Of a DNA stretch of 64,000 bases, positions 10,033-34,263 are shown piece after piece. The stretch covers positions 237,907-301,906 of the forward strand of contig OZ244210.1 in assembly GCA_965216835.1 (NCBI GenBank), in the 5' to 3' direction. The notes beneath the pieces are model-generated. The model did not search any database, was not told the DNA's origin, and saw only the letters and a program-made list of their open reading frames with translations. The translations under genes and the position numbers were made by a program. Within the stretch, counting starts at the first letter, position 1, and each line of letters starts with the position of its first letter. The DNA comes from a bacterium. GTDB lineage: Bacteria; ARS69.

Positions 10033-11428
10033 GATGCGACCCGGTCGTGACGAAGGTGCCGTACATCGCCTGCACCCGTCCCCGGAACGCGGCCCAGCCC
10101 AGGCGATCCCGGGCGAACGATGCGGCGCGGCGACCCAGCTCGGCCGCCAGCGGTCGATCCATCAGCAGCGTGGCGATGGCTCGACCCATCGCGGCGGGAT
10201 CCTCCGGTGCCACCAGGCGCGAGTTCGTCTCGTCCAGGACGGTCCGATGCGTGGCCGTGTCCGTCGCGACGATGGCGCGGCTGGCGGCCATGTAGTCGAA
10301 CACCTTGAGCGGCAGGTTGCCGACGGCCTCGCGCGGCGAGACGACGACGTCCGCGATCGTGAGAAACGCCGCGATCCGCTCCCGGGGCTGACGCGGCAGG
10401 GTCCTGAGCACGCCGCGCTCCCGCCAGACGGCGGCCTCCGGCGGCAGCCCGCGAGCCGCCTTGCCGTCGCCGCCCACCAGCAGGAAGAGCGCGTCCGGCG
10501 CGGACTCCAGCGTGGCCCCGATGGCCGAGATCAGGCGGGGCAGCCCCTGATAAGGAGCGAAGCTCCCCGTGTACAGCACGACCGGCCGTCCTTCCGGAAG
10601 CCCCAGTTCCCGGCGGAGCTCCGCGACGTCCTTCGCGGAAACGTTCCAGCGCATGGCCGGATAGTGCCACGCGTGCACGGGGACGTCTTCCCGGACGGAG
10701 CGCACGTAGGCTTCCAGCCCGGCGCTGCAAGCCACCAGATCCGCGCGCTCGATCAGCCAGTGCTGCGCCCGCTCCATCAGCGTCGGGAGGGGCGGCACGC
10801 GGAAGAACGCCGACTGACGCATCTGCGTGGGCAGGTGGGACTGCATGTCATAGATCACGGGGACGTCATACCGGGCGGCCAGCTGGACCGCCGGGAATGC
10901 CGCCTCCTCCACGGCGTGCACGCAGCCGTAGGTCCGCGTCGCCAGGCGGTGGGCGAGGACCCGCGTCAGGCTCAGGTCCAGCGCCACCTTCCGCAGCGAG
11001 AAGCCGATCGGCACCGACCGGATACCGAGCGGGTTCGGGCTCCGGAAGACGCTGAGACCCTCCAGCTCCACTGGGCGGCCGATGGGGTAGGTCACCAGGT
11101 CCACCGGGATGTCCAGCTCGCTCAGCGCCAGGACGACCTCCCGCACCGCGATCGGCGTCCCGCGATCCTCGTAGAACGGCTCGGGCGCCACCAGCAGGAC
11201 GGGCAGTCCGGGGCCGGAGGCCGCGATCCGCGGTTTCTGGATCGCTCCGGAGGAGGTGTCGGCGCGGCGCGTGGTCGACAATTCGGCGGACCCGTGGGTG
11301 CGAGGAGAAGGCGCACTCCGCCCGGACCGAGCCGGACGGACTCTCTCCTGCGTTTCGGCCGCCGTGGGTCGCTTCGTGAGGCCTCTCCCCATCTTCATCG
11401 TTCCGCCTCCCGCTGGATTCAGTAGCAC
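10022..11428 (-). CDS. Glycosyltransferase family 4 (GT-B, GT1-type); first gene of the operon, exact start uncertain
   Basis: 'VLLVAPEPFYEDRGTPIAV', 'VVLYTGSFAPYQGLPRLI' and 'FLLVGGDG' match GT4. The first ~80 aa are low-complexity, so the real start may be MKMGRG at 11398 or later. Confidence 0.75.
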   Translation of the reverse strand: MLLNPAGGGTMKMGRGLTKRPTAAETQERVRPARSGRSAPSPRTHGSAELSTTRRADTSSGAIQKPRIAASGPGLPVLLVAPEPFYEDRGTPIAVREVVLALSELDIPVDLVTYPIGRPVELEGLSVFRSPNPLGIRSVPIGFSLRKVALDLSLTRVLAHRLATRTYGCVHAVEEAAFPAVQLAARYDVPVIYDMQSHLPTQMRQSAFFRVPPLPTLMERAQHWLIERADLVACSAGLEAYVRSVREDVPVHAWHYPAMRWNVSAKDVAELRRELGLPEGRPVVLYTGSFAPYQGLPRLISAIGATLESAPDALFLLVGGDGKAARGLPPEAAVWRERGVLRTLPRQPRERIAAFLTIADVVVSPREAVGNLPLKVFDYMAASRAIVATDTATHRTVLDETNSRLVAPEDPAAMGRAIATLLMDRPLAAELGRRAASFARDRLGWAAFRGRVQAMYGTFVTTGSHRAP

Positions 11429-11528
11429 CGCGGCGGGGAATCCGCAATCCCGCCCCGGCGCCGCCGACGGTCAACCGGCGCCCCCCATCTGCCGATCCCT
11501 GACGAGGGAACGCGTCCTCCGGGCGCAG

Positions 11529-14528
11529 GTGTGCCCGTCCGCCCCCCAGCCTCCCGAAAGGCCCCCCTTGCGCCGACTCCACCTCCTCCTTCCGATCCTG
11601 CTCGTCCTGCTGGCGGGATCCTCCCCGGCCGACGCCCGGTCGTTCGGGAGGAACAAGGTCCAGTACGACGACTTCGACTGGCGGGTCCTCCACACGGAGC
11701 ACCTGGAGATCCACTTCTATCCGGAGGAGGAGGCGCTGGCGCACCGGGCCGCGGAGTACGGCGAGGAGGCGTGCCGCCGGCTGGACGAGGAGCTCGGGCA
11801 CTCGCTCAGCCGCCGGGTTCCGGTGATCGTCTACGGCTCGCACCATCACTTCCGGCAGAACAACGTCATGCCCAACCTGGTGGGGGAGGGCACCGGCGGC
11901 TTCACCGAGATCTTCCGCAACCGCGTCGTGCTGCCCTACGCCGGATCGGAACCGGACTTCCGGCACGTCGTGCATCACGAGCTGGTGCACGCCTACGTGT
12001 TCGATCGCCTGTACGGCGGCCCCGTGAAGTCGCTCTTCGTCCTGCAGTACGCGTTCCACATCCCGCTCTGGTTCATGGAGGGGATCGCGGAGTACTACTC
12101 CAACCGCTGGGACTCCGAGGGCGAGATGATGCTGCGCGACGCCGCGCTCAGCGGTTCGCTGCCGCCCTTCCCGCGCATCTACGGCGGCTACTTCGTCTAC
12201 AAGGCCGGGCCGACGGCCGTCGCGTTCCTGGTGGAGAAGCACGGCGAGGACGTCGTGCAGCGGATCCTGGACGAGGTGGCCGAGGTGCGGGACCTGCGCG
12301 CCGCCGTGAAGAACGTCACCGGGGAGTCGCTGGACGAGCTGGGCGGCGAGTGGCTGATCGATTGGCGGAAGCGCACGTGGCCCACCATCGCCGAGCTGGA
12401 CCCGGCCGACGAGTACGGACGCGCCCTGCCCGCGCACGCCGGGAGCGCGCTGGACTCGCACCCGGGACTGTCGCCGGACGGGACGCGCGTCGTGTTCCTG
12501 TCGGACCGGAGCGGCACGCCCGATCTGTGGGTGCGGGGCACGCGGGAGGATGCCGGCCCGGCCGAGGTGCTCGTGCACGGGGCGCGCAGCGACCAGTTCG
12601 AGTCGCTGCACCCGCTGCACAGCTCCGTGGGCTGGTCGCCGGACGGCAAGTTCGTCGTGGCGGCGGCACGGAAGGGCTCCCGCGACGCGCTCTACGTCCT
12701 GGACGTGGACGATCGCGAGAGCGTGGCGGAACTCACGCCGGACCTGGACGCGCTGGAGCGGCCGGACTGGTCGCCGGTCGATGCGCGCTTCGTGTTCACG
12801 GGGATGCGCGGCGGCCAGGTGGACCTCTGGACGATCGAGGCCGACGGCTCGGGGCTGGTGCCGCTCACCAACGATCTGCACGAGGAGCGCGGACCGCGCT
12901 TCAGTCCCGATGGCCGGCGCGTGCTCTTCACCACCGACCGCGGCGACTCCGGCGGGCTGGACCTGTGGACCGTGGACGTGGAGACCGGTCGGGAGATGCC
13001 GCTGGTGGCCGGAGCGGGCGATCAGTGGGACGGCGCGTGGAGCGGCGACGGCGCGTCCGTGTACTACGTCAGCGACGAGTTCGGCACGCGTGACCTCCTG
13101 CGGTACGACCCGGCCACGGGCAAGTCGAATCGCCTGACGAAGCTCATCGGCGGGGCCGGCGCGCCGTCGCTGGCGCGGGACGGCGGCAACCTGGCGTTCA
13201 CCGTCTACGAGAAGGGCCGCTACCGCATCGTGCTGGTGGACGATCCGGACTCGTTGCAGGCGGTCGAGGCGCCGCGGGTGGACGTGGGCGATGCGTTCTG
13301 GTGGAAGACGTACGAGCGCGCCGACTCCGCGGCCGCGGACAGCGCAGCGGTGGAGGTCGCCGAGGGAGGGGGAGCGGTCGACGCGGCGAAAGACGAGGAC
13401 GTGTCGGCGGAAGAGGACGACCCCGATCGGCACTATCCCGACGGCCGCTTCGATCCCTACGTGGACGGCTACGACCCGCGTCTGCGGCCGGAGTGGCTGG
13501 CCGGATCGCTCGGCTACGCCGGATTCGGCTTTCACCTGGGCGTGCAGAGCGAGGTGACCGACGTGCTCGGGAACCACCGCATCGCCGTCAGCGCCAACCT
13601 GTTCCGCACGCTGAAGAACACGGACGCGTACGTCGGCTACCGCTACCTGGCCGACCGGCTGGACTACGGGATCGCGGCGTTCCACTTCCGCGACTTCCTC
13701 TACGACGACCGCACCGCGCTGGGACAGCCCGTGGGCGAGGAGGGCGACGACGCCCGGTTCACGGAACGTCAGTGGGGCCTCAGCGGCATCGTCTCCTATC
13801 CGTTCCACACGTTCCGCCGCGTCGATCTGGAAGTGGCGGCGATGACGCTGGACCGCGAGCGCTACGACCGAATCGACAACCGCTACGTGCTCATCGGTTC
13901 CACGCAGAGCAGCGTGCTGCGCCCGACGCTGTCCCACACGTTCGACAACACGCTCTGGGGCTGGACGGGACCGGTGCAGGGTTCGCGTTCCGTGCTGTCG
14001 GCCAGCTACGTGATCCCGGTCGGCGGGGAGCCGATCGAGTTCGCCACGGTGCTCGCCGACCTTCGCCACTACGACCGGTTCGGAGAGTACGTCCTCGCGA
14101 TGCGCGGCATGGCGACGGCGGGCTTCGGCCCCGACCCGCGCGAGATCCAGCTGGGCGGCCCCGCCACCATCCGCGGCCACGACCACCAGTCCATTCGCGG
14201 CCGCCACGCCGCCGTGGGATCGCTGGAGTTCCGCTACCCGTTCCTGGAGTACGTGCGCCTGGGTTGGCCGCTGCGCTCCGCGTTCGGCGGCGTGCGCGGC
14301 AACCTCTTCCTGGACGTGGGCACCGCCTTCGACGATCCGGAGCAGGCGAAGCTCACCGGCCCGAACGAGTTCGGGGACGACGCGCTGCGCGACCTGCACA
14401 TCGGCTTCGGCTTCGGGATGCGAGCGCGCGTGGCGTTCCTCCCCATGCGCATCGACTGCGGCTGGCCGACCGACGGGTCGCGGGTGGGCAAGCCGAACTG
14501 GGACTTTGCGCTGGGGCCGGAGTTCTAG
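11529..14528 (+). CDS. Outer-membrane fusion protein: signal peptide, HExxH (peptidase-MA-like) region, TolB/PD40-type beta-propeller repeats, C-terminal Omp85/surface-antigen beta-barrel
   Basis: The GTG at 11529 precedes the signal peptide 'LRRLHLLLPILLVLLAGSSPADA'. 'HHELVHAY' lies at 11973-11996, followed by 'MEGIAEYYS'. Repeated PD40 blades are 'SPDGTRVVFLSDRSGTPDLW', 'WSPDGKFVVAA...LYVLD' and 'FSPDGRRVLFTTDRGDSGGLDLWTVD'. The C-terminal barrel carries 'LGGPATIRGH...GSLEFRYPF' and 'GFGFGMRARVAFLPMRIDCGWP'. The ATG at 11256 was rejected because it overlaps the divergent GT4 gene. Confidence 0.75.
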   Translation: MCPSAPQPPERPPLRRLHLLLPILLVLLAGSSPADARSFGRNKVQYDDFDWRVLHTEHLEIHFYPEEEALAHRAAEYGEEACRRLDEELGHSLSRRVPVIVYGSHHHFRQNNVMPNLVGEGTGGFTEIFRNRVVLPYAGSEPDFRHVVHHELVHAYVFDRLYGGPVKSLFVLQYAFHIPLWFMEGIAEYYSNRWDSEGEMMLRDAALSGSLPPFPRIYGGYFVYKAGPTAVAFLVEKHGEDVVQRILDEVAEVRDLRAAVKNVTGESLDELGGEWLIDWRKRTWPTIAELDPADEYGRALPAHAGSALDSHPGLSPDGTRVVFLSDRSGTPDLWVRGTREDAGPAEVLVHGARSDQFESLHPLHSSVGWSPDGKFVVAAARKGSRDALYVLDVDDRESVAELTPDLDALERPDWSPVDARFVFTGMRGGQVDLWTIEADGSGLVPLTNDLHEERGPRFSPDGRRVLFTTDRGDSGGLDLWTVDVETGREMPLVAGAGDQWDGAWSGDGASVYYVSDEFGTRDLLRYDPATGKSNRLTKLIGGAGAPSLARDGGNLAFTVYEKGRYRIVLVDDPDSLQAVEAPRVDVGDAFWWKTYERADSAAADSAAVEVAEGGGAVDAAKDEDVSAEEDDPDRHYPDGRFDPYVDGYDPRLRPEWLAGSLGYAGFGFHLGVQSEVTDVLGNHRIAVSANLFRTLKNTDAYVGYRYLADRLDYGIAAFHFRDFLYDDRTALGQPVGEEGDDARFTERQWGLSGIVSYPFHTFRRVDLEVAAMTLDRERYDRIDNRYVLIGSTQSSVLRPTLSHTFDNTLWGWTGPVQGSRSVLSASYVIPVGGEPIEFATVLADLRHYDRFGEYVLAMRGMATAGFGPDPREIQLGGPATIRGHDHQSIRGRHAAVGSLEFRYPFLEYVRLGWPLRSAFGGVRGNLFLDVGTAFDDPEQAKLTGPNEFGDDALRDLHIGFGFGMRARVAFLPMRIDCGWPTDGSRVGKPNWDFALGPEF

Positions 14529-18326: not shown

Positions 18327-21257
18327 ATGATATTCGTTTGTCATAGGCGCTCGGACGCTGATCCGTTTGTGGACCGTCTGGCGAGCGCGTTGGAGGGGCG
18401 ATTCGGGCATGAGGCTTCGTTCGCCGACATCAGGCACCTTCAACCCGGCGACCAGTGGGCTGAGGAACTGGATCAAGCGCTCGCGATCGCAAAGGTCGTG
18501 CTTGTAGTCATCGGCACGAAGTGGGACCAACTGCGCTTCCACGACGGTCGGTATCGGGGGTTCCCTCGACTGCACGACCCGTCCGACGTCGTCCGAAGAG
18601 AGATACTTGCATCTCTGGCGAGAGGCCGCGACGTCCGCCTTGTTCCAGTGCTGGTCGATAGGGACGTCCTGCCGAACCGGGACTGGTTGAAGAATTTTGG
18701 CCTCCAAGATCTTCACAGATTTCAGGCGATTTTCGTCCGGTCTGAGTCGCTTGATAGCGATATCGAGTATCTGCTTGAGGAACTGGGTCGGATCAACGGG
18801 CCGGCTGCGACGCCCAGCCGGGCACAGCAGGATTCTCCAAAGGTCTGGATTCCTCACGCTGGACATGTCCTTCAGCGCGCGCCGCATTTTGAAGGACGGT
18901 ATGATCTGAGAAAGGAGCTCACGCAGTGGGCGATGTCGACGGCCACGAGTTGCAGAGTGCACGGCATCGTGGCTCCAGGGGGAACCGGAAAGACCGCGGT
19001 CGTCGAGTGGGTGCTCAGACAGGTTGCAGTCAACCCCGCCGCGGGCGTCTTCGTCTGGTCGTTCTACGCAAGTCAGCACACAGAGGCCTTCATTCGGTCC
19101 GCGATCGAGTACTTCGGTGAGGGGTCTGTCGACGGTTCGGCCCCACCGACTCTTGAGATGCTCCAGACACTGTTGTCAGGCCACCATCCGCACCTACTCA
19201 TCCTGGACGGCATGGAACTGGTCCAAGCAGAGCGTCCCGGTCGTGTGCACGGCTCGTTTCAGGATTCTCTCCTAAGGCGACTCCTGCGTTGGATCGCAGC
19301 CGGGATCGGGACTGGCTCGCGAGCCCTTATCACAACTAGGTTTCCGCTTGTTGACTTGGGTGATTGGCTCGGCACAAGTGTCAAAGAGATCAGGCTCGAG
19401 GATATCTCGGTCCGGGTGGGGATCCAAGTGCTTCGGGCCTGGGGCGTCATCGGTACCGAGAGCGAACTCCGGGAGGTTCTAGTGCCGCTACAGGACCCTA
19501 GGACCGATAGAGTCCATGCGCTCACAACGGCTGTGATCGGATCGTATGTGGGCAAGATGTGGGGAGGAGACCCGAGTAAGGCGCCGACGCTCAGTAAGGG
19601 TTTTCTGGCTCAGGACACTCAGGGCAACAAGCTCACGAAAGTACTGACAAGCTACGCGGACGCACTGAGCCCGTTGGATCGCGACATACTGTCGCGTCTC
19701 TCGATGTTCCCACATGGCATTGGAGTTCGCCTGCTCGAGCAGCTGGCCAAGAGTGGGGGCGAAGTGGCAGGCTCGTTGGTCGGTGCTGACTCGCTCCAGC
19801 TCCGAGATGCGCTGGCCAAACTCCGACACCTCGGTCTGGTCTTTCAAGCCGGCACTGCGACAGACTCCACCTACACAGCTCATCCTTTTCTCCGCTACTA
19901 CTTCTCTCAGATCCACGGTTTGGAGGATCCGACCAGCGTGCCTGAAGAGGTCCGAAGACTCATGGCCCTCGAACTGGATAGGCGTCCAAGTACTCGGCCG
20001 TGGAGCAGCGAAGAGCTGGACCGGTACGAATCGCTGATCGAGGCGACACTACTGGCCGGAGACATTGGCGGCGCCTATCAGCTCTACGCATCACGATTGG
20101 GAGGATTTCGACATGTCGGATGGAAGCTGGGAGCGTATTCACGCGGAGACCGGGTCGCGTCTAGGATCCAGGAAGCAAATGAGGGCAGCCACCCGGGGAA
20201 GGGACTGGGGGCAGGGGAGGAGGCACAACTCCTCGAGGACTGCGGGGCGTTCTCGGCTGAACTGGGGAACCTATCGCGCGCGCTGGAGCTCTTCGAGCTC
20301 CAGCGAACGAGGGCGGAGGACAACGGGATTCCTAGAGCGCTCAGGCGCGGCAGCCTGAATGTGTGCGACGTCCTTGCCCAGCGTGGGGAGTGGGCGAGCC
20401 TGCAGGACATCGCCCGGAGTGTGATGGCGAGATCGGCGTCGTCGGATGCAAGAGACGACAGGGAGATCGCACTTGTCTCGCTCGGTAGCTCTTGGTTCTG
20501 GATGGGTGAAGTTGCTCGAGCGGATGACTTGTTTGAGGAGGCGGAGGCGATTGAGGAACGAGAACTCTACTCTCGGCGCGGCGTCGCTCTCCTGGATTCG
20601 CTGCTGGCGACGGGCCATTGGGATATTGCGGAAGCGCGATGCAAGGCCAATCTAGAATACTGCAAGGAGCGAGGGTGGCTTGATGACGTAGCATTGTGCG
20701 AGTCCGTCATGGGTTGGTGTACCCTAAGGCGGGACGCAGTGACGGCGAGCACGCACCTGGGACTGGCGCGCCAGTACGCGAATCGCACCGGCCACACCGA
20801 GACCTCTTTGCGTTGCTATCAACTCGCTAGCGCTGTCGCTAGGCAAGGGGTTCGTTTGAAGGACGCCGTGTTTGAGGGTCGCAACGGGATCGAGTTGGCT
20901 AAGTCGTGCGGCATGCACAGGTGGGAGTTGGCTCTTCGATTGGAACTAGCAAGGACGTATCGAACGTTGGGGAAGTTCGAGGAAGGCGTTGAGGAAGGCC
21001 TTTTCGTTCAAAGCGCGGCGGAAGATCCAGCGGCAGGCGACTGTTGGATGTCCCTCATCGCGCTGCACTTGGTCGGATCGTGCAACGTGGAGATGGGCCG
21101 CACGATGGAGGGGGAGCGACAGAGGAATCTCGCGATCGCCAGACTTAAGCAGATCCTCCCAAAGGGAGCACTTGAGCGTCGACGGCGCAAGTTTGGCGGC
21201 AGCGCGAATCGGGACCATGGATCAGATATCGGACTGCTGGAGCTGCTCGGAGAGTAG
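18327..21257 (+). CDS. TIR - NB-ARC (STAND NTPase) - TPR protein; candidate antiphage/NLR-like sensor-effector
   Basis: TIR-like N-terminus: 'MIFVCHRRSD', 'PGDQW', 'SDVVRREILASL...VRLVPVLVD'. NB-ARC: 'FEGRYDLRKEL', P-loop 'APGGTGKTA' (18972-18998), Walker B 'HLLILDGME' and 'GSRALITTRF'. The C-terminus is ~450 aa of TPR-like helical repeats. GC is markedly lower than in the flanks. Confidence 0.8.
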   Translation: MIFVCHRRSDADPFVDRLASALEGRFGHEASFADIRHLQPGDQWAEELDQALAIAKVVLVVIGTKWDQLRFHDGRYRGFPRLHDPSDVVRREILASLARGRDVRLVPVLVDRDVLPNRDWLKNFGLQDLHRFQAIFVRSESLDSDIEYLLEELGRINGPAATPSRAQQDSPKVWIPHAGHVLQRAPHFEGRYDLRKELTQWAMSTATSCRVHGIVAPGGTGKTAVVEWVLRQVAVNPAAGVFVWSFYASQHTEAFIRSAIEYFGEGSVDGSAPPTLEMLQTLLSGHHPHLLILDGMELVQAERPGRVHGSFQDSLLRRLLRWIAAGIGTGSRALITTRFPLVDLGDWLGTSVKEIRLEDISVRVGIQVLRAWGVIGTESELREVLVPLQDPRTDRVHALTTAVIGSYVGKMWGGDPSKAPTLSKGFLAQDTQGNKLTKVLTSYADALSPLDRDILSRLSMFPHGIGVRLLEQLAKSGGEVAGSLVGADSLQLRDALAKLRHLGLVFQAGTATDSTYTAHPFLRYYFSQIHGLEDPTSVPEEVRRLMALELDRRPSTRPWSSEELDRYESLIEATLLAGDIGGAYQLYASRLGGFRHVGWKLGAYSRGDRVASRIQEANEGSHPGKGLGAGEEAQLLEDCGAFSAELGNLSRALELFELQRTRAEDNGIPRALRRGSLNVCDVLAQRGEWASLQDIARSVMARSASSDARDDREIALVSLGSSWFWMGEVARADDLFEEAEAIEERELYSRRGVALLDSLLATGHWDIAEARCKANLEYCKERGWLDDVALCESVMGWCTLRRDAVTASTHLGLARQYANRTGHTETSLRCYQLASAVARQGVRLKDAVFEGRNGIELAKSCGMHRWELALRLELARTYRTLGKFEEGVEEGLFVQSAAEDPAAGDCWMSLIALHLVGSCNVEMGRTMEGERQRNLAIARLKQILPKGALERRRRKFGGSANRDHGSDIGLLELLGE

Positions 21258-24288: not shown

Positions 24289-25317
24289 ATGCTGACCCTC
24301 GAGGAGATCCTGGCCGCGGCCGGCGATGATGCGCCGTCCGGCGAGTCGCTGGGCCGCTCGCGCGAGGGGCGCGAGATCGTCGGCCACCGGTTCGGCGCGG
24401 GGAGCCATCGCGTGAGCCTGATCGCCGGCTGTCACGCGGACGAACCGACCGGTCCGCGGCTGCTGCGCGCGCTGGTCCGGGCGCTGGCGGGCCTTCCGGC
24501 CGCGCACGGCGCCCGGGCCGATGTGTCCTGGTGGATCGTCCCGCATGTGAACCCCGACGGCGAGGCGCGCAACGCCGCGTGGCAGCGCTCCGGCGCGGCG
24601 GCCCCGGATCTCGTCGACTTCCTGCGCCACTCCGAACGCGAACCGCCGGGCGACGACGTGGAGTTCGGCTTCCCGCGGGACGACGCGGACGACGGCGCCC
24701 GTCCGGAAACCGTCGCCGTGCGCGAGTTCTGGAAGCGCGCGGGGGGGCCGTTCCACCTGCACGCCTCGCTGCACGGGATGTCGATCGCCGGGGGCGCGTA
24801 CTTCCTCCTCGATCGCACGTGGATCGACCGGACGGAGGAGCTGCGCGAGCGATGTGTCGCCGCAGTCCGCGAGCTGGGCTACCCACTCCACGACGTCGAC
24901 CGGGGCGGGGAGAAGGGCTTCACGCGGATCGCGCCCGGCTTCTGCACGCGTCCCGACTCCCGCGCCATGGCGGGCCACTTCGAACGGCTCGGCGACGCCG
25001 CCACCGCCGCGCTCTTCCGGCCGTCGTCCATGGAGGCGATCCGCGCACTCGGCGGCGACACGCTCACCCTGGCCTCGGAGATGCCGCAGTTCCTCGTCCC
25101 CGACCTCGGCGGCGATGCGGCGGCCTCGTCCGGGAAGATGACCGCCTGGCGGGACCGGCTCTCGGTCTGGCGGGCGAAGGTCGATCGGCCGGGTGGCGAC
25201 GCGGAGGTCCGGTCGGAAGCGAAGTCGGCCGGCGTGCGGGCGATGCCCATCGTCGACCAGATGCGGCTCCAGTGGGCGATGGTGCTCGCGGGACTGGACG
25301 CCTCGCGCCTCCCTTGA
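24289..25317 (+). CDS. M14-family zinc carboxypeptidase-like protein
   Basis: 'IAGCHADEPTG' (HxxE zinc motif) and 'WWIVPHVNPDGEARN' are present. The start is the ATG at 24289 (MLTLEEIL). Confidence 0.65.
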   Translation: MLTLEEILAAAGDDAPSGESLGRSREGREIVGHRFGAGSHRVSLIAGCHADEPTGPRLLRALVRALAGLPAAHGARADVSWWIVPHVNPDGEARNAAWQRSGAAAPDLVDFLRHSEREPPGDDVEFGFPRDDADDGARPETVAVREFWKRAGGPFHLHASLHGMSIAGGAYFLLDRTWIDRTEELRERCVAAVRELGYPLHDVDRGGEKGFTRIAPGFCTRPDSRAMAGHFERLGDAATAALFRPSSMEAIRALGGDTLTLASEMPQFLVPDLGGDAAASSGKMTAWRDRLSVWRAKVDRPGGDAEVRSEAKSAGVRAMPIVDQMRLQWAMVLAGLDASRLP

Positions 25318-25345
25318 CCCGTTTGGCGCGTGTCCTGGGACCTTG

Positions 25346-25374
25346 TTGCAATCAGCGGGGATTCGCGACATTGT
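25346..25374 (+). promoter_or_regulatory. Weak sigma70-like promoter candidate upstream of the stand-alone TIR gene
   Basis: TTGCAA (25346-25351), a 17-nt spacer, then CATTGT (25369-25374), about 58 nt upstream of the GTG at 25432. This is a motif match only, and promoter consensus in this lineage is unknown. Confidence 0.2.
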
Positions 25375-25431
25375 GACCGGTTCGACCCGGAAGCTCGGCT
25401 ACGCGTGGACACCAAGAAGAAGGGCATCGTC

Positions 25432-26376
25432 GTGAAGGTCTTTATCAGCTGGTCGGGCAAGGACGGGCAGAGGCTTGCCGAGATCCTGCGGCGGACCATT
25501 CCCTCGGTCATTCAATCGGCCCAACCATGGGTATCGGCGGAGGACATCGGCGCAGGTCGCGCTTGGAACGATGACCTCAGGCAGGCCATGGAGGACGCCG
25601 ACGCCGCGATCATCTGCGTGACCCATGCCAAGGAGTCCCAGTGGCAGATGTTCGAGGCGGGCGCGTTGATGTGCGGCTCGGGGCGACGCCCGGTGATTCC
25701 GCTGGTTCTCAAGGGCAAGCTCAAGTCTCTCCCTCCTCCGCTGAGGCAGTTCCAGGTCGTTCGCTGCGACCGTAGAGGACTCCTCGAGCTCTTCAAGGGC
25801 TTGAACAAGAGACGAGTGCCGCAGCCGATCGCTGAGACCGTGCTGTACCGGATGTTCCAGGCGGAGTGGCCGTTTCTTTGGGAAGCCCTGCACAAGCTGC
25901 GGGGCGGGTTCGATACGAGAGAGGCACCGCTGGCTGCCGTTCATCCCTACTCAGGGAACTGGTGCTTCCGTGGAACGTGTCGGGTGCCGGAAGGACAATC
26001 CGCGCAAGAAGTGGAGTCCGTAACGTGGAGTGGTGATCTGGACCTCTTTGTGAGCGCGAGTCGGGCGCTCTTTTCCGGAACTCTTCACAGTGAACTCCGC
26101 CTCGAAGGCGGAGAGACTCCGGGCACGGTCTACACCGCGGCCCGCCTCAGGACCTTGAAGATGACGGCCGGCCAGGTCACTCTCGAGTTCGACCAACGTC
26201 TGGCGGACTGGCTGTCGGCGGCCCCGGCCGGGGAGCGCGCGGAGGGAGTCGTGCAGCGCATCCAACTCGAGCTCAAACCTCGGCCCGAAGACTACTTGAC
26301 CCGACTGTCGGGGACCTTTTCCCTCGAAGGGACTCTCGGAGTCTACGAAGGGAAGGTTCGGTTCCGAAAGGCGTGA
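25432..26376 (+). CDS. Stand-alone TIR-domain protein with unassigned ~170 aa C-terminal domain
   Basis: 'KVFISWSGKDGQRLAEILRRTIPSVIQSAQPWVSAEDIGAGRAW...AAIICVTHAKESQWQMFEAGAL' is the bacterial TIR_2-type signature (FISWSG ... W..FEAG). The GTG at 25432 is preceded by the purine-rich AAGAAGAAGGG. The ATG at 25330 is an alternative start. GC is lower than in the flanks. Confidence 0.75.
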   Translation: MKVFISWSGKDGQRLAEILRRTIPSVIQSAQPWVSAEDIGAGRAWNDDLRQAMEDADAAIICVTHAKESQWQMFEAGALMCGSGRRPVIPLVLKGKLKSLPPPLRQFQVVRCDRRGLLELFKGLNKRRVPQPIAETVLYRMFQAEWPFLWEALHKLRGGFDTREAPLAAVHPYSGNWCFRGTCRVPEGQSAQEVESVTWSGDLDLFVSASRALFSGTLHSELRLEGGETPGTVYTAARLRTLKMTAGQVTLEFDQRLADWLSAAPAGERAEGVVQRIQLELKPRPEDYLTRLSGTFSLEGTLGVYEGKVRFRKA

Positions 26377-26439
26377 CGAGCTGCCGTTGCTCCTGCAAAC
26401 TTGGAGCCCGGCATGGCTTCGGGCGGTTGAGCGAGAGAC

Positions 26440-27924
26440 ATGCAGCCCGTCGCGCTGACCGCAAGTTCCGCAAACGATCACAGGTTGCCTCCCGGAGAGA
26501 ACCGGCACGTGACACAGAGACCGAAGCGCGCGTCTTTGGACCCTGACGTCGAGGAGATGCGCCGCGTCGGCTACGCGGCCGTCGACCGCATCGTGAAGCA
26601 TCTCGGGACGCTGGAGGAGCAGCCGGTCGCGAGACGCGGCACCGCGGCCGAGTTCGCGGCGCTTGTCGACGAGCCGCTGCCCGAGACCGGTCGCAGCCTG
26701 GACGACGGCCTCCGCTTCCTGTTCGACCGGGCGATCCCGCCGATGACGCGCGTGAACCATCCGCGCTTCCACGCCTACATCCCGTGCCCGTCCAGCTTTC
26801 CCGGCGTGGTGGGAGAGATCGTGGCGGCGGGAACGAACCCGTTCCTGGGAAGCTGGCTGGGCGGCGCGGCGCTGGGGTCGATGGAACTCACCGTGCTGCG
26901 GTGGATCGCGGAGCTCGTCGGCTACCCGAACGATGCGGCCGGACTGCTGACCAGCGGCGGCTCGCTGGCGAACCTGTCGGCGCTGGCGTCGGCGCGTGCG
27001 CGATTCGGCGAGGAGACGATGCAGCGCGGCGTGATCTACGTCTCCCGCGAGGGTCACGCGTCCATGGACAAGGCGGCCGTCGTACTCGGCTTTCCTCCGG
27101 ACGCGATCCGCGCGATCGACGTGGACGATCGGATGCGGCTGCGGATCGATACGCTGCGGGAGGCCGTGTCCGCCGATCGTGCGGCGGGGCGGCTTCCGTT
27201 CTTCGTCTCGGCCAACGCCGGCACGACCAACACCGGAGCCGTCGATCCGCTGGAGGACGTCGCGGGTTTCTGCGCGGCGGCGGATCTCTGGATGCACGTC
27301 GACGGAGCGTACGGCGGCCTCGCCGCGCTGGACCCCGACGCGAAGCGTCTCCTGGCCGGAATGGAGCGCGCCGATTCCCTCACGCTCGATCCGCACAAGT
27401 GGCTCTACGCCCCGATGGGCTGCGGCTGCGTGCTCGTGCGGCGCGCGGAGTTCCTGGAGCGCGCCTTCACCGCCCACGGCGACTACCTGCGCGACCTGCC
27501 CGGCGACGAGGTGAACTTCCTGAACCGCGGCGTGGAGCTGTCGCGGCCGGCGCGCGTGATTCCCGTGTGGATGGTGATCCGCTCCGCGGGACGCGCGGGA
27601 CTGGCGGCGCAGGTGACGGAGGATCTTCGCCTGGCGCGTCTGGCGGCGGATCTCCTCGCGGAGGACGATCGCTTCGAGCTGGTCGATCGGCCGCAGCTCT
27701 CGGTCGTGGCGTTCCGGCACCGCGCGCGCCCCGGTGAGTCCGAGGAAGATCGGGCGGCCCGCGATCAGGCGCTCATGGAGGCCACGCTGGCGGACGGCGC
27801 GCTGATGCTCTCCACCACGATCACCGGCGGCCGGACCGTTCTGCGCATGGTGGTCATGAACCATCGCACGTCGGAGGAGCACGTGCGCTTCAGCGTCGCG
27901 AGGATCCGGGAGCTGGCGGAGTGA
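26440..27924 (+). CDS. Pyridoxal-phosphate-dependent group II amino-acid decarboxylase
   Basis: 'SGGSLANLSALASAR', 'HVDGAYGG' and 'SLTLDPHKWLYAPMGCGCVLVR' (PLP-lysine motif) are present. The start may instead be the GTG near 26509. Confidence 0.85.
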   Translation: MQPVALTASSANDHRLPPGENRHVTQRPKRASLDPDVEEMRRVGYAAVDRIVKHLGTLEEQPVARRGTAAEFAALVDEPLPETGRSLDDGLRFLFDRAIPPMTRVNHPRFHAYIPCPSSFPGVVGEIVAAGTNPFLGSWLGGAALGSMELTVLRWIAELVGYPNDAAGLLTSGGSLANLSALASARARFGEETMQRGVIYVSREGHASMDKAAVVLGFPPDAIRAIDVDDRMRLRIDTLREAVSADRAAGRLPFFVSANAGTTNTGAVDPLEDVAGFCAAADLWMHVDGAYGGLAALDPDAKRLLAGMERADSLTLDPHKWLYAPMGCGCVLVRRAEFLERAFTAHGDYLRDLPGDEVNFLNRGVELSRPARVIPVWMVIRSAGRAGLAAQVTEDLRLARLAADLLAEDDRFELVDRPQLSVVAFRHRARPGESEEDRAARDQALMEATLADGALMLSTTITGGRTVLRMVVMNHRTSEEHVRFSVARIRELAE

Positions 27925-29399: not shown

Positions 29400-30686
29400 C
29401 TACTCCTTCGTCCGGAAACGAGACTTGATGTTCGCCCAGGAACTGTCCTCGACGGACACGGTTCCGCAGCCGACGCCGTAGGCACCGATCCGGCCGCAGG
29501 ACGGAGCGTTCTCCTCGGCGCAGGGAGACGTGGAGCGGAGCGTGTAGTCATCGTTGGGGACGTCGCAGAACTGGGGGTCGACGAAGAGGTCGTTCGGTCC
29601 CGGCGTGTAGCTGGAGTGGGCGTCCCCCGAGTTGGCCCAGAAGACGTTGCAGTCGCCCGCTCGAATCTCTCTCGTCGCATGGTAAGCGGTGCCGCCGGAG
29701 CCGAGCGCGAAGATGTTGCGGGTCGCCAAGACGCCGCCTCCGAGCACGCGGTCCAGAACAGCCGTGCCGATGGGCGCCTCGTTTCCGACGAACGTGTTGC
29801 CGGAGTATTCGCCCGGGTCGAGGATCATCAGGCCGCCGCCGCCCGTCGTTGCGCGGTTTCGCAGGAACAGGTTGCCATCGACCACAGCCGGCTCCGAGTT
29901 GGCACTGATGACGAGTCCGGCTCCCAACTCGGCGGTGTTCTCGATGAATCGGCTGTTCGTGACCACGGCCGGATCCACGCCAACGACCGCCAGCCCGCCC
30001 GCTTGGATTCCGAAGTTGTTCCGGAAGACGCATCCCGTCACCAGGATATCCCCGCCCCCCCGCGCGAGCATCGCGGTAGGGCCGCACTCCTCGAAGATCG
30101 AGTCGCGGACGACCGTCCGGCTGTCGCCCGTACCGTTCGCCTTCATGGCGCCTGCCTCCAGGGCGGCCGTACAGCGAACGAACTCGCAGCCGATCACTTC
30201 CAGCGAGCCGCCGTTCTGGGCAAGCCCCGCGGCCGCGTTCGACGATGTTTCGACGTCCACCACGCGGCAGTCCACCACGCTCATGTTCCAGCAGTTCACG
30301 AAGGCCATCCCCCGTGCGTTGGCCACGGTTGTTCGCATCTCGAACCCCTCGACACGTGCCCCGCCCGTTCCGATGCCGTCGCCCCCGACGACCCGCAGGC
30401 CGGAAGACGGACCTCCCTCCACGAGTTCCAGCAGGGTCACGTCCGGGCCGCCCTCCGACAGAAGCGTCAATCCCTCGAAGATGTCCGCAACGCGAGCAGT
30501 ACAAGGACCGTCGTCGCAGTTCGTATAGACTCCTGGAGCCACGAGCACTGTGTCGCCCGCGACCGCCGACCCGATCGCGCTTGCGATCGACGGATACGCG
30601 TCAGGGACCCTCAACGTAGCTGCATCGGCTTGATCCCCAACGGCGAGAAGCCCCGCAAGTCCCCAAATGAGACGTGTCCACTTCAT
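29400..30686 (-). CDS. Secreted right-handed parallel beta-helix repeat protein (pectate-lyase-fold)
   Basis: The start is 'MKWTRLIWGLAGLLAVGDQADA' at 30686. 'GDTVLVAPGVYT' is followed by repeated ~22-aa G/N/V-rich turns ('NCWNMSVVDCRV', 'VTGCVFRNNFG', 'VTNSRFIENTA', 'VDGNLFLRNRA'). The C-terminal tail is 'VSVEDSSWANIKSRFRTKE'. Confidence 0.7.
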   Translation of the reverse strand: MKWTRLIWGLAGLLAVGDQADAATLRVPDAYPSIASAIGSAVAGDTVLVAPGVYTNCDDGPCTARVADIFEGLTLLSEGGPDVTLLELVEGGPSSGLRVVGGDGIGTGGARVEGFEMRTTVANARGMAFVNCWNMSVVDCRVVDVETSSNAAAGLAQNGGSLEVIGCEFVRCTAALEAGAMKANGTGDSRTVVRDSIFEECGPTAMLARGGGDILVTGCVFRNNFGIQAGGLAVVGVDPAVVTNSRFIENTAELGAGLVISANSEPAVVDGNLFLRNRATTGGGGLMILDPGEYSGNTFVGNEAPIGTAVLDRVLGGGVLATRNIFALGSGGTAYHATREIRAGDCNVFWANSGDAHSSYTPGPNDLFVDPQFCDVPNDDYTLRSTSPCAEENAPSCGRIGAYGVGCGTVSVEDSSWANIKSRFRTKE

Positions 30687-32017: not shown

Positions 32018-34263
32018 CCGTCCGCCGCGCCGTCACGGCGATGGTCCTGCTGCTGGTGGCGGGGCTCGCCTGGATCGCCCGCGACGCCGCCGACCAGCGG
32101 CATGAGCTGCCGGACGGCGGCTGGGGCACGTTGGACGCCGACACCTTCTACCACCTGCGCCGCGCCGATCGTGCGCTGACCGAGGGTCTGCCGCCGGCGG
32201 GCACGGACTCCTACCTGAATCATCCCGAAGGTTCGGCGATTCCCTGGCCGCCGTACTACGCGATCGTCGGCTGGGCGGCGGCGACCCCGGGCGCGCCGGA
32301 CGATCCGGAGGCGCGTCGCGCGCACGTGGAGCGACGCGTCGCCTCCCTGCCGATGGCGATCGGCGTTGGCACGAGCGTGCTGGCCGGCGTGGCGGGCGCC
32401 GCGCTCGCGGGACCCGTCGGCGCGATCCTGGCCGGCGGCAATCACGCGCTCTGCTTCGGATCGCTGGTCTACACGCGCGCGGGCAACGGCGACCACCACG
32501 CCTGGGTCACGATGCTCCACCTGCTGATGCTGATGCTCCTGAGCGCGGGCCTCGCGCGCGGCGCGGCGGATCGTCGTCGGCCGGCGATGGTCTGGGGCGC
32601 GGCGGCCGGCGCCGTGGCCGGTCTGGCCGTCGGCTCGTGGGTGGGCTTCGTGCTGCACGTCCTGCCGGTGCAGCTGATGTTCGGGGCGATGATCCTGGCG
32701 AGCGGCCGGCGCGATCGGCCGGGAACGGCCGCTTTCGGGGCGGCGTTCCACGTCGCGGCGCTCCTCGTGGTCCTGCCGGCCGCCGCGGTGAGCCCGTGGA
32801 ACGCGGTCCAGCCCGGTTCCGTGGTGAACCTGTCGTGGTTCCATCCCGTCTGGCTCGCGGCGGGCGCCCTCGTCTTCGCCCCGATGTTCTTCCTGCGCGG
32901 CGGTACGGTCGCGGCCCGCCTGCACCCGTTCGCGGTGCTGCTGGGCCTCGGCGCGATCGGCCTCTTCCTGGCCGCCTCCGGCAGCGGTGTCGCCGTCGCG
33001 ATGCGCGAGGCCTTCCAGTGGCTCGGCCGCGAGGACGAGTTCATGGGCTCGGTGTGGGAGTCGCGCGGCGTCGGGCTGCACGAGGCGGGCATCCTGCTGG
33101 GGCGCGCCTACTACTTGCTGCCGCTCGTCGTGGCGGGGGCGGCGTTCGCGGTCGTGCGGCGCGGGCGTTGGGAGCTGCTGCCGTGGACGTTCGCGGTGCC
33201 CGTGCTGGCGGTGGAGGCGGCGCGCCAGTACCGCTTCAACGAGACGCTCACCGCGTCGTGGTCCGTGCTGCTGGCGTGGGGCGTCGTGGCCGCGTTCCGG
33301 TCGGACGCGGTGCGCTCGCGCCTCCGCTTCGTGCCGGCGGGCGCCACGCTCCCGGCGGCGTTGATCGCGTGCCTCGTCTTCCTGGGACTCACGCACCGGC
33401 AGAGCGTGCGCGAGACGATGGAAGGGCTGCGGCAGGACGTTCCCGTGGGCGATGCTCTTTCGCGCGAGATGCGCGACCTGTGCGAGTGGCTGCGGCTCCG
33501 CGCCCCGGGCGACGAGGCCGTGCTCGCCGACTGGAACTTCGGGCACCTGGTGGAGTGGGTGGCCGATCGTCCGACGGTGGGCACGAACTTCGGGATCTAC
33601 GTGGGCGAGGACAGCTTCCGCGACGGCGCGCGATTCTTCCTGGAGACGGATCCGGCCGCCGCGATGGATCTCCTGCGGCGCCGCGACGTCCGCTTCGTGC
33701 TCCAGACGGGCTGGCAGCCGAGGTTCCTGGAGCAGATGGTGCGCGCGGCGAGGCCGTCGTCCCCGGAGAGATTCCTGGTCCGTTCGGGCGAGGGCTCCCA
33801 GGTGGGACCCGCGTGGTTCGAGACGATGAGCGCGCGCCTCCTCTTTAACGGATCGGTCGTCTCGCCGGCCGGCGACGTGGGGCCGCCGCTCTCCACGCTG
33901 CGCCTCGTGCACGTCTCGCCGTCGCCCTTCCCGGAGCCGATGTTCAACGAGGTGCGCCCCGCGGGATGGATCTGGGAACGCGTGCCCGGGGCCGCGCTCA
34001 CCGTGGCCGGCGTTCCCGGCGACACGCTCCAGGTGGAGATCCCGGTCCGCTACGAACCCGCCGACTTCGAGCTGACTTGGTGGGCGGAAGCGACCGCCGG
34101 CGACGATGGCACCGCGACGGTCCGCATTCCCTACGCCACGGACACCCCGAACGGCGACGGCCGCGCGACCGGTCCGGCACGGGTGAGGATGGGGTCCCGC
34201 CGGGGTGAGGTGGCGATCCCGGAGGCGGCGGTCCGCGGCGGCGGGGCGCTGCGTCTCGACTGA
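32014..34263 (+). CDS. STT3/AglB-like GT-C membrane glycosyltransferase with divergent WWDYG motif
   Basis: The GTG at 32014 overlaps the kynA stop (GTGA). 'LDADTFYHLRRA' (32134-32154) resembles the first STT3 D-x-D loop motif, and 'GNGDHHAW' the second. More than 10 hydrophobic helices are present. 'LADWNFGHLVEWVADRPTV' (33529-33543 encodes DWNFG) aligns by eye to the 'SWWDYGHWI...ERP.V' block. Confidence 0.6.
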   Translation: MTVRRAVTAMVLLLVAGLAWIARDAADQRHELPDGGWGTLDADTFYHLRRADRALTEGLPPAGTDSYLNHPEGSAIPWPPYYAIVGWAAATPGAPDDPEARRAHVERRVASLPMAIGVGTSVLAGVAGAALAGPVGAILAGGNHALCFGSLVYTRAGNGDHHAWVTMLHLLMLMLLSAGLARGAADRRRPAMVWGAAAGAVAGLAVGSWVGFVLHVLPVQLMFGAMILASGRRDRPGTAAFGAAFHVAALLVVLPAAAVSPWNAVQPGSVVNLSWFHPVWLAAGALVFAPMFFLRGGTVAARLHPFAVLLGLGAIGLFLAASGSGVAVAMREAFQWLGREDEFMGSVWESRGVGLHEAGILLGRAYYLLPLVVAGAAFAVVRRGRWELLPWTFAVPVLAVEAARQYRFNETLTASWSVLLAWGVVAAFRSDAVRSRLRFVPAGATLPAALIACLVFLGLTHRQSVRETMEGLRQDVPVGDALSREMRDLCEWLRLRAPGDEAVLADWNFGHLVEWVADRPTVGTNFGIYVGEDSFRDGARFFLETDPAAAMDLLRRRDVRFVLQTGWQPRFLEQMVRAARPSSPERFLVRSGEGSQVGPAWFETMSARLLFNGSVVSPAGDVGPPLSTLRLVHVSPSPFPEPMFNEVRPAGWIWERVPGAALTVAGVPGDTLQVEIPVRYEPADFELTWWAEATAGDDGTATVRIPYATDTPNGDGRATGPARVRMGSRRGEVAIPEAAVRGGGALRLD

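Follow-up and report, generated by a model that had tools for sequence, protein, structure and literature searches.

TIR enzymes are common to bacterial, plant and animal immunity, and how most of them are switched on is an open question. The question arises again for a gene at 25432..26376 (forward strand) of a 64,000-nucleotide (nt) stretch of bacterial DNA (assembly GCA_965216835.1, contig OZ244210.1, positions 237,907 to 301,906; hereafter the window, to whose first letter all coordinates refer). This gene encodes an N-terminal TIR domain followed by a tail that matches no recognised family. What kind of TIR protein is this, and what might its tail do? In the first-pass annotation, made from the sequence alone, the protein was taken for an orphan. 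As judged from its sequence, it belongs instead, as a divergent member, to a very large family, here called AC1-type after the prototype encoded by Escherichia phage P2_AC1. What is unusual in the window protein is a unique tail that lacks the conserved helix of the family; variable tails are themselves a family trait.

The coding sequence (25432..26376, +) starts with GTG and specifies 314 amino acids (aa) followed by a stop codon, as delimited from the list of open reading frames (ORFs) and from the alignment to a family profile. Its stop-to-stop frame extends from 25318 to 26376 (+), the earliest start codon in this frame is a GTG at 25330, and the public gene call (P0001) places the start 9 codons upstream of ours, at 25405. 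Position 25432 is the best start call because the family profile, built without the window sequence, begins there (consensus “mkVFiSWsgk” aligned with “VKVFISWSGK”) and because GAAGAAGGG (25416-25424, +), which was read from the sequence as resembling a ribosome-binding site and has this function only putatively, lies 7 nt 5' of this GTG. All homologues of the window TIR protein have MKVFISW as their N-terminus. The gene is separated from its neighbours by gaps of 114 nt upstream and 63 nt downstream, and neither a promoter nor a terminator was detected at the locus.

Residues 1-157 (25432..25902, +) comprise a TIR fold with a helical extension to about W146. The first-pass assignment of the N-terminus to TIR_2 is borne out by the Pfam profile (PF13676), which matches residues 3-113 with 46.7 bits against a cut-off of 28 (E = 5.3e-12). 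The predicted structure agrees with it: AlphaFold2, supplied with an alignment of 132 sequences, modelled residues 1-158 as an alternating beta/alpha fold with a block-mean predicted local distance difference test score (pLDDT) of 66-98, mostly >85, and the best Foldseek matches in the PDB, with a probability of 1.00, were TIR domains (SPARTA TIR-APAZ, SARM1, TcpB/BtpA, PdTIR and BtTir). A Foldseek search of BFVD returned only generic TIR and deoxyribosyltransferase folds. The putative catalytic glutamate, E75 (GAG codon, 25654-25656, +), lies in the motif W71-x-x-F74-E75-A-G77-A78; its numbering from the GTG and the peptides quoted in the first-pass annotation are exact. The E75 column is invariant across 132 family members, and in the family profile it aligns with the “W.L.E” glutamate of plant TIRs and its AbTir equivalent, a position established as the catalytic residue of the TIR enzymes that cleave nicotinamide adenine dinucleotide (NAD+), or NADases. 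The family-invariant TIR residues are all intact in the window protein (15/15). At the level of sequence, residues 1-157 make up a complete AC1-type TIR module with a putative catalytic glutamate, and the domain would be expected to cleave NAD+.

Membership of the family is evident from several searches. The PADLOC model PDLC03016, named “TIR-TM”, matches the window protein with E = 3.5e-38, aligning residues 1-157 with profile positions 1-158 of 293, and a family hidden Markov model (HMM) built without the window sequence matches its TIR module with E = 1e-44. When a profile of the N-terminal module was used as the query, 3,662 protein clusters were retrieved at E < 1e-5, most of them 265-285 aa in length; typical members span positions 1-206 up to 1-286 of the PDLC03016 profile. 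Searches of phage genomes with tblastn yielded matches to gp02 of P2_AC1, which is 37% identical to the window protein across residues 1-157, and to gp47 of the lambdoid phage mEp390. The meaning of the “TIR-TM” label was settled by scanning the P2_AC1 genes against PADLOC: gp02 matches this model over profile positions 1-286 of 293, and the gene is preceded by two small genes that match the “2TM-TIR” and “1TM-TIR” models (TM, transmembrane). The three-gene locus, listed in DefenseFinder as Rst_2TM_1TM_TIR, was cloned from phage AC1 by Rousset et al. 2022 and protects against lambda, LF82_P8 and P2 (PMC9122126). With thousands of related clusters, a PADLOC model and a prototype in a validated anti-phage system, the description of the window TIR as an orphan had to be abandoned.

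The homology of the window protein to this family ends at residue 156-157. The C-terminal region that follows (residues 158-314, 157 residues; 25903..26373, +) has no homologue, TM segment or assigned fold. The conserved post-TIR helix and the canonical tail (profile positions 159-293) gave no match in any of the six frames of 25300-26700; a frameshifted canonical tail was rejected on this ground, and the region therefore represents a replacement tail. A phmmer search with residues 150-314 against 1.84 billion representative proteins recovered only the window protein itself and no true homologue. Eight matches at E < 1e-3 were rejected: they are long proteins built of tandem repeats, belong to unrelated families (PPC, YadA stalk, Cry domain IV, propeller blades) and owe their scores to the summing of weak stretches; through such summing, tandem-repeat proteins reached E-values as low as 7e-24 in this single-sequence search. 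A propeller-blade repeat, SVTWSPELNLFVAV against SVTWSGDLDLFVSA, was a lone short match and was taken as chance. The tail produced no match at E <= 10 to Pfam, NCBIfam or PDB sequences and none to other family tails, window paralogues or viral contigs, and it contains neither an internal repeat nor a TM-like segment. These searches uphold the first-pass description of a non-TM C-terminal region that belongs to no recognisable family and, in particular, to no housekeeping family. Given that the lineage is poorly sampled, the absence of homologues is slender evidence for the uniqueness of the tail.

Structure prediction was of little help with this region. From the single sequence, AlphaFold2 produced an unusable model (pLDDT 36); with and without the alignment, the pLDDT of the tail stayed below 50 over most of its length, rising to a peak of 58-70 near residues 241-280 when the alignment was supplied. 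The low-confidence tail helices of the aligned run were rejected, as they probably reflect unrelated helical family tails that share alignment columns. The alternation of hydrophobic and polar residues gives, by eye, the impression of a beta-rich tail.

The wider family provides the context in which such a tail can be read. Its members are mainly carried by mobile elements and are usually solo. The family is present on at least 128 IMG/VR contigs, and the settings encountered include a Mu-like prophage, another prophage, a site adjoining a phage portal gene, a ParA-bearing plasmid-like contig, small plasmids and a serine-recombinase island in Thauera. The solo member of mEp390, gp47 (locus L168, 3001-3882), lies between the Q antiterminator and holin genes in the opposite orientation, a position typical of morons. 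Directly downstream of gp47, each strand has one annotated rho-independent terminator. Of 80 viral loci, only 2 have AC1-type TM genes that tblastn detects, and both of these are nearly identical to the locus of AC1 itself. A small same-strand ORF with TM-like segments lies directly upstream of the TIR gene in 20 of 73 viral loci (~27%; among others L184, L186, L204, L205, L215, L218, L220, L221, L230, L232, L236 and L247), the remaining 53 having none, and divergent TM partners may perhaps be commoner than the annotated three-gene system. These upstream ORFs encode 55-233 aa, mostly ~120-150, with 1-2 TM-like segments, and are situated about 30-500 nt from the TIR start.

The tails of the family are highly variable. 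Beyond the first 40 post-TIR residues, the tails of 119 members fall into 20 clusters, of which 16 are singletons, and this variability fits a role in specificity or sensing. An RNA polymerase alpha-CTD-like tail was identified in 7/132 members (best E = 1.6e-17) and a sigma-70 region 4 tail in 1/132 (together P0003, P0018, P0079, P0082, P0100, P0108, P0120 and P0016); the sequences of these DNA-binding or RNA polymerase-contacting tails suggest that some members may sense nucleic acid or the transcription machinery. Most family tails open with a conserved helix, “R..R.LLEEILE..R”. The conserved post-TIR helix is likewise missing from two other members, L238 (363 aa) and P0007 (325 aa), whose tails are long, globular-looking and of no recognised type, so the window protein is not the sole case of complete tail replacement. 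Solo members such as mEp390 gp47, P0140 of Thauera sp. CAU 1555 and P0010 of a Mu-like prophage share with the window gene the same TIR module, the lack of a recognisable partner and a variable tail, but mostly retain the conserved helix at the start of the tail, which the window protein lacks, and reside in clear mobile-element contexts. No experimental test of gp47, P0140 or P0010 is reported in the literature searched.

The base composition of the locus points to a foreign origin. The TIR gene and its two short gaps form a lower-GC patch (25318..26439) with a GC content of 0.631 against a window mean of 0.707 (standard deviation 0.032, z = -2.33). The first-pass annotation had inferred such a patch from hand counts of two 60-nt lines in the gene (37/60 and 37/60) and one in the upstream M14 gene (46/60), which are exact. 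Comparably low values occur in the window only here and in a TIR-STAND region at 17.8-21.6 kb. The GC content at third codon positions (GC3) is 0.76 in the TIR gene and 0.67 in the TIR-STAND gene, compared with 0.88-0.92 in neighbouring genes, and the two low-GC TIR loci fit two separate acquisitions. The gene of the second locus (18327-21257, +) encodes a 976-aa protein that combines TIR, NACHT/STAND NTPase and TPR domains and occupies the lowest-GC stretch of the window (~0.60). Its architecture is that of the validated single-gene “TIR-NLR” system of Rousset 2022. In PADLOC, the 18327 protein has no match to the TIR-NLR model and only weak TIR matches.

Upstream of the TIR gene lie genes for a UvrD helicase, a phytase-like protein, a glycerol kinase and an M14 peptidase; downstream are genes for a pyridoxal phosphate (PLP) decarboxylase, two small unknown proteins, a beta-helix protein, a tryptophan dioxygenase and an STT3-like transferase. 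The immediate neighbours are thus the M14 peptidase and the PLP decarboxylase, and, as the first-pass annotation stated, no ThsA, STING, caspase or nuclease partner adjoins the gene. Searches of the TIR locus for an integrase, a tRNA, an Rfam element and direct or inverted repeats in the flanks were all negative. To place the junction in relatives, 160 loci were available (80 genome loci of PLP decarboxylase homologues and 80 metagenome loci of M14 homologues), and the adjacency of M14 and PLP decarboxylase genes occurs in none of them (0/160). The best identities in these loci are 57-70%, and the nearest sampled homologues of the flanking genes overall are only 55-70% identical.

We read the gene as a horizontally acquired, stand-alone, NAD-consuming anti-phage TIR enzyme with a sensing or regulating tail, an explanation that we favour over the others while giving it roughly even chances of being correct. 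The TIR domain would oligomerise and thereby cleave NAD+; the C-terminal region would hold it off until a phage-derived cue is met; and activation would deplete NAD+ or release a nucleotide of the ADP-ribose (ADPR) type, so that the infection is aborted. Foreign acquisition is indicated by the GC and GC3 values of the gene relative to those of its neighbours. A defence role is supported by the presence of the family prototype in a validated anti-phage locus, together with mobile-element carriage. The tail reads as coding because 157 codons would remain open at the local composition with a chance of only ~0.010 and because a codon model derived from the neighbouring genes favours the annotated frame over the others (+0.26 per codon, similar to the +0.22 of the TIR-STAND gene). 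The sensing or regulating role of the tail would follow the logic of the single-gene system SpbK, to which we return below. A more specific proposal can be advanced tentatively, and it is one that we would sooner doubt than assert: residues 158-314 might constitute a new beta-rich fold, specific to the lineage, that binds directly to some component of the phage and controls the TIR NADase, forming a complete one-gene sensor, and the AC1-type TIR module would be a widely shared “effector cassette” re-armed by bacteria and phages through tail swaps, with the window protein as its most divergent known version.

Several observations weigh against the stand-alone defence enzyme. The only tested member of the family was cloned with two TM genes, its TIR never alone (PMC9122126). 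No mobile-element hallmark or classical defence island was seen in the window, and the flanks consist of same-strand housekeeping genes. The insertion lacks confirmation from relatives, the sampled flank homologues being too distant (55-70%) and the gene order not shared. The first 78 codons of the tail (25903-26136) show almost no coding bias (+0.07 per codon). Finally, the tail is without homologues and resisted modelling by AlphaFold2, so that a folded sensor domain within it is putative.

One alternative, which we regard as unlikely, is that the TIR acts in trans, with the tail as the infection sensor and an ADPR-derived messenger as the signal to an effector encoded at another site of the 4.7 Mb genome. 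The candidate effectors are a ThsA-like protein, TM proteins of the kind suggested for AC1 and the product of TIR-STAND gene 18327. The precedent is the proposal of Rousset 2022 that the two TM proteins of AC1 respond to an activating nucleotide messenger made by the TIR (PMC9122126), and the small TM-like ORFs directly upstream of the TIR gene in 20/73 viral loci are in keeping with it. In the window, however, tblastn with the AC1 1TM and 2TM proteins found nothing below E = 1.7 over the 64 kb, and there is no space for a small ORF beside the gene; most family members, moreover, are solo. Gene 18327 has in its favour that it is a second TIR gene in a low-GC patch 4 kb away, but its TIR domain has only the fold in common with that of the gene at 25432 (E = 0.14), and none of the genes checked between 11 and 34 kb encodes a SIR2, SLOG, Macro, STING or SAVED protein.

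A second alternative, to which we likewise attach a low probability, dispenses with a functional tail. If a deletion or recombination had removed the canonical tail, the gene would be a decaying or accidental chimaera whose frame reads into unrelated sequence, and the TIR itself would lack activity, be weakly expressed or be in the process of being lost. The lack of homologues and the failure of AlphaFold2 are as expected of such a tail, as are the near-zero coding bias over 25903-26136 and the drop in GC3 to 0.58-0.64 over 25882-26106; long chance open frames are frequent in high-GC DNA, and neither a promoter nor a terminator was detected. The coding signal does not stay low, however: the last 79 codons score +0.45 per codon in this frame only, and GC3 returns to 0.72-0.88, so that the tail is probably translated and, as far as codon usage indicates, at least its second half is probably under selection. 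The low chance of so long an open frame argues in the same direction. The enzyme half is undecayed, with every family-invariant residue in place, no remnant of a canonical tail persists in any frame, and the poor sampling of the lineage deprives the missing homologues of much of their force.

Least probable of all, and in our view very doubtful, is a role outside defence, in which the protein would be an NAD-linked enzyme of regulation or stress whose gene is transcribed together with the glpK-M14-PLP decarboxylase string: the gene does share the direction of its housekeeping neighbours, with short gaps and no terminator, and one family lineage is stably placed between glmU and a DUF2189 gene, but none of the 160 loci of M14 and PLP decarboxylase homologues has a TIR neighbour, the composition looks foreign, and the family is strongly tied to phages and plasmids.

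Three further genes of the window deserve mention. A right-handed beta-helix protein is encoded at 29400-30620 (-), with a slightly reduced GC content of 0.65-0.67 and a GC3 of 0.78, and may be another acquired gene. At 32050-34263 (+) lies the gene for a bacterial protein with STT3 and AglB_L1 domains that resembles an oligosaccharyltransferase, and at 11175-14528 (+) that for a 1117-aa protein with PD40 beta-propeller repeats and a C-terminal Omp85 domain.

For the annotation of such loci, the practical gain is modest: “orphan TIR” is corrected to “divergent AC1-type TIR”, and attention is drawn to the solo members of the family. More broadly, the locus links the TIR of the three-gene phage system, itself rarely detected, to a far larger family of proteins that are mostly solo and have interchangeable tails. 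Should the tail of the window protein prove to be a sensor, the protein would offer a compact one-protein model for trigger recognition; should it prove to be junk, the locus would exemplify the decay of a defence gene.

Among known defence systems, the nearest relative of the window protein is the TIR protein of AC1. Both consist of an N-terminal TIR and a tail of ~120-160 residues, and every family-invariant residue is common to the two, as are the MKVFISWSG start and the W-x-x-FEAGA motif. They differ in that the AC1 protein has the conserved helix after the TIR (“IVESLLDISR”; family “ILEEILE..R”) and a helical tail, both absent from the window protein in all frames, and in that the AC1 gene has 2TM and 1TM partner genes, which the window gene lacks. 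The AC1 locus occupies a P2 hotspot, whereas the window gene is chromosomal, in an environmental bacterium of 71% GC.

Other TIR-containing systems are further removed. ThsB of Thoeris is, like the window protein, a small TIR protein, and ThsB can sense infection and signal; the window protein matches no ThsB model in PADLOC, and there is no ThsA among the genes checked between 11 and 34 kb. For CBASS and Pycsar, the CAP12-PCTIR_TIR model gives E = 0.03 and 14.8 bits against a cut-off of 24.7, no sensor domain of these systems was found in the tail, and no cyclase occurs among the neighbours. Of the structures in the PDB, those of SPARTA TIR-APAZ, in which the TIR is also N-terminal, resemble the TIR module best (8i87 and 8spo; E ~5e-5), but the alignment does not reach beyond the TIR (~155-160 columns, 14-16% identity); PADLOC shows no APAZ or Ago match, and the window gene has no Argonaute neighbour. 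As their defining partners or domains were tested for and are absent, the window gene falls outside Rst_2TM_1TM_TIR, Thoeris, CBASS/Pycsar and SPARTA.

A mechanistic parallel is SpbK, a single-gene TIR NADase of the Bacillus subtilis element ICEBs1, whose non-TIR region binds the SPbeta portal and switches the TIR on (PMC11984713). SpbK has a catalytic glutamate and acts by abortive infection through loss of NAD+; its example shows that one polypeptide combining sensor and TIR can suffice for NADase defence (PMC11984713). The N-terminal sensor of SpbK precedes its C-terminal TIR, an order that is reversed in the window protein. The likeness is one of logic and not of family, and it is in this sense that SpbK serves as the working model for an AC1-type TIR whose activity would be governed by its own tail.

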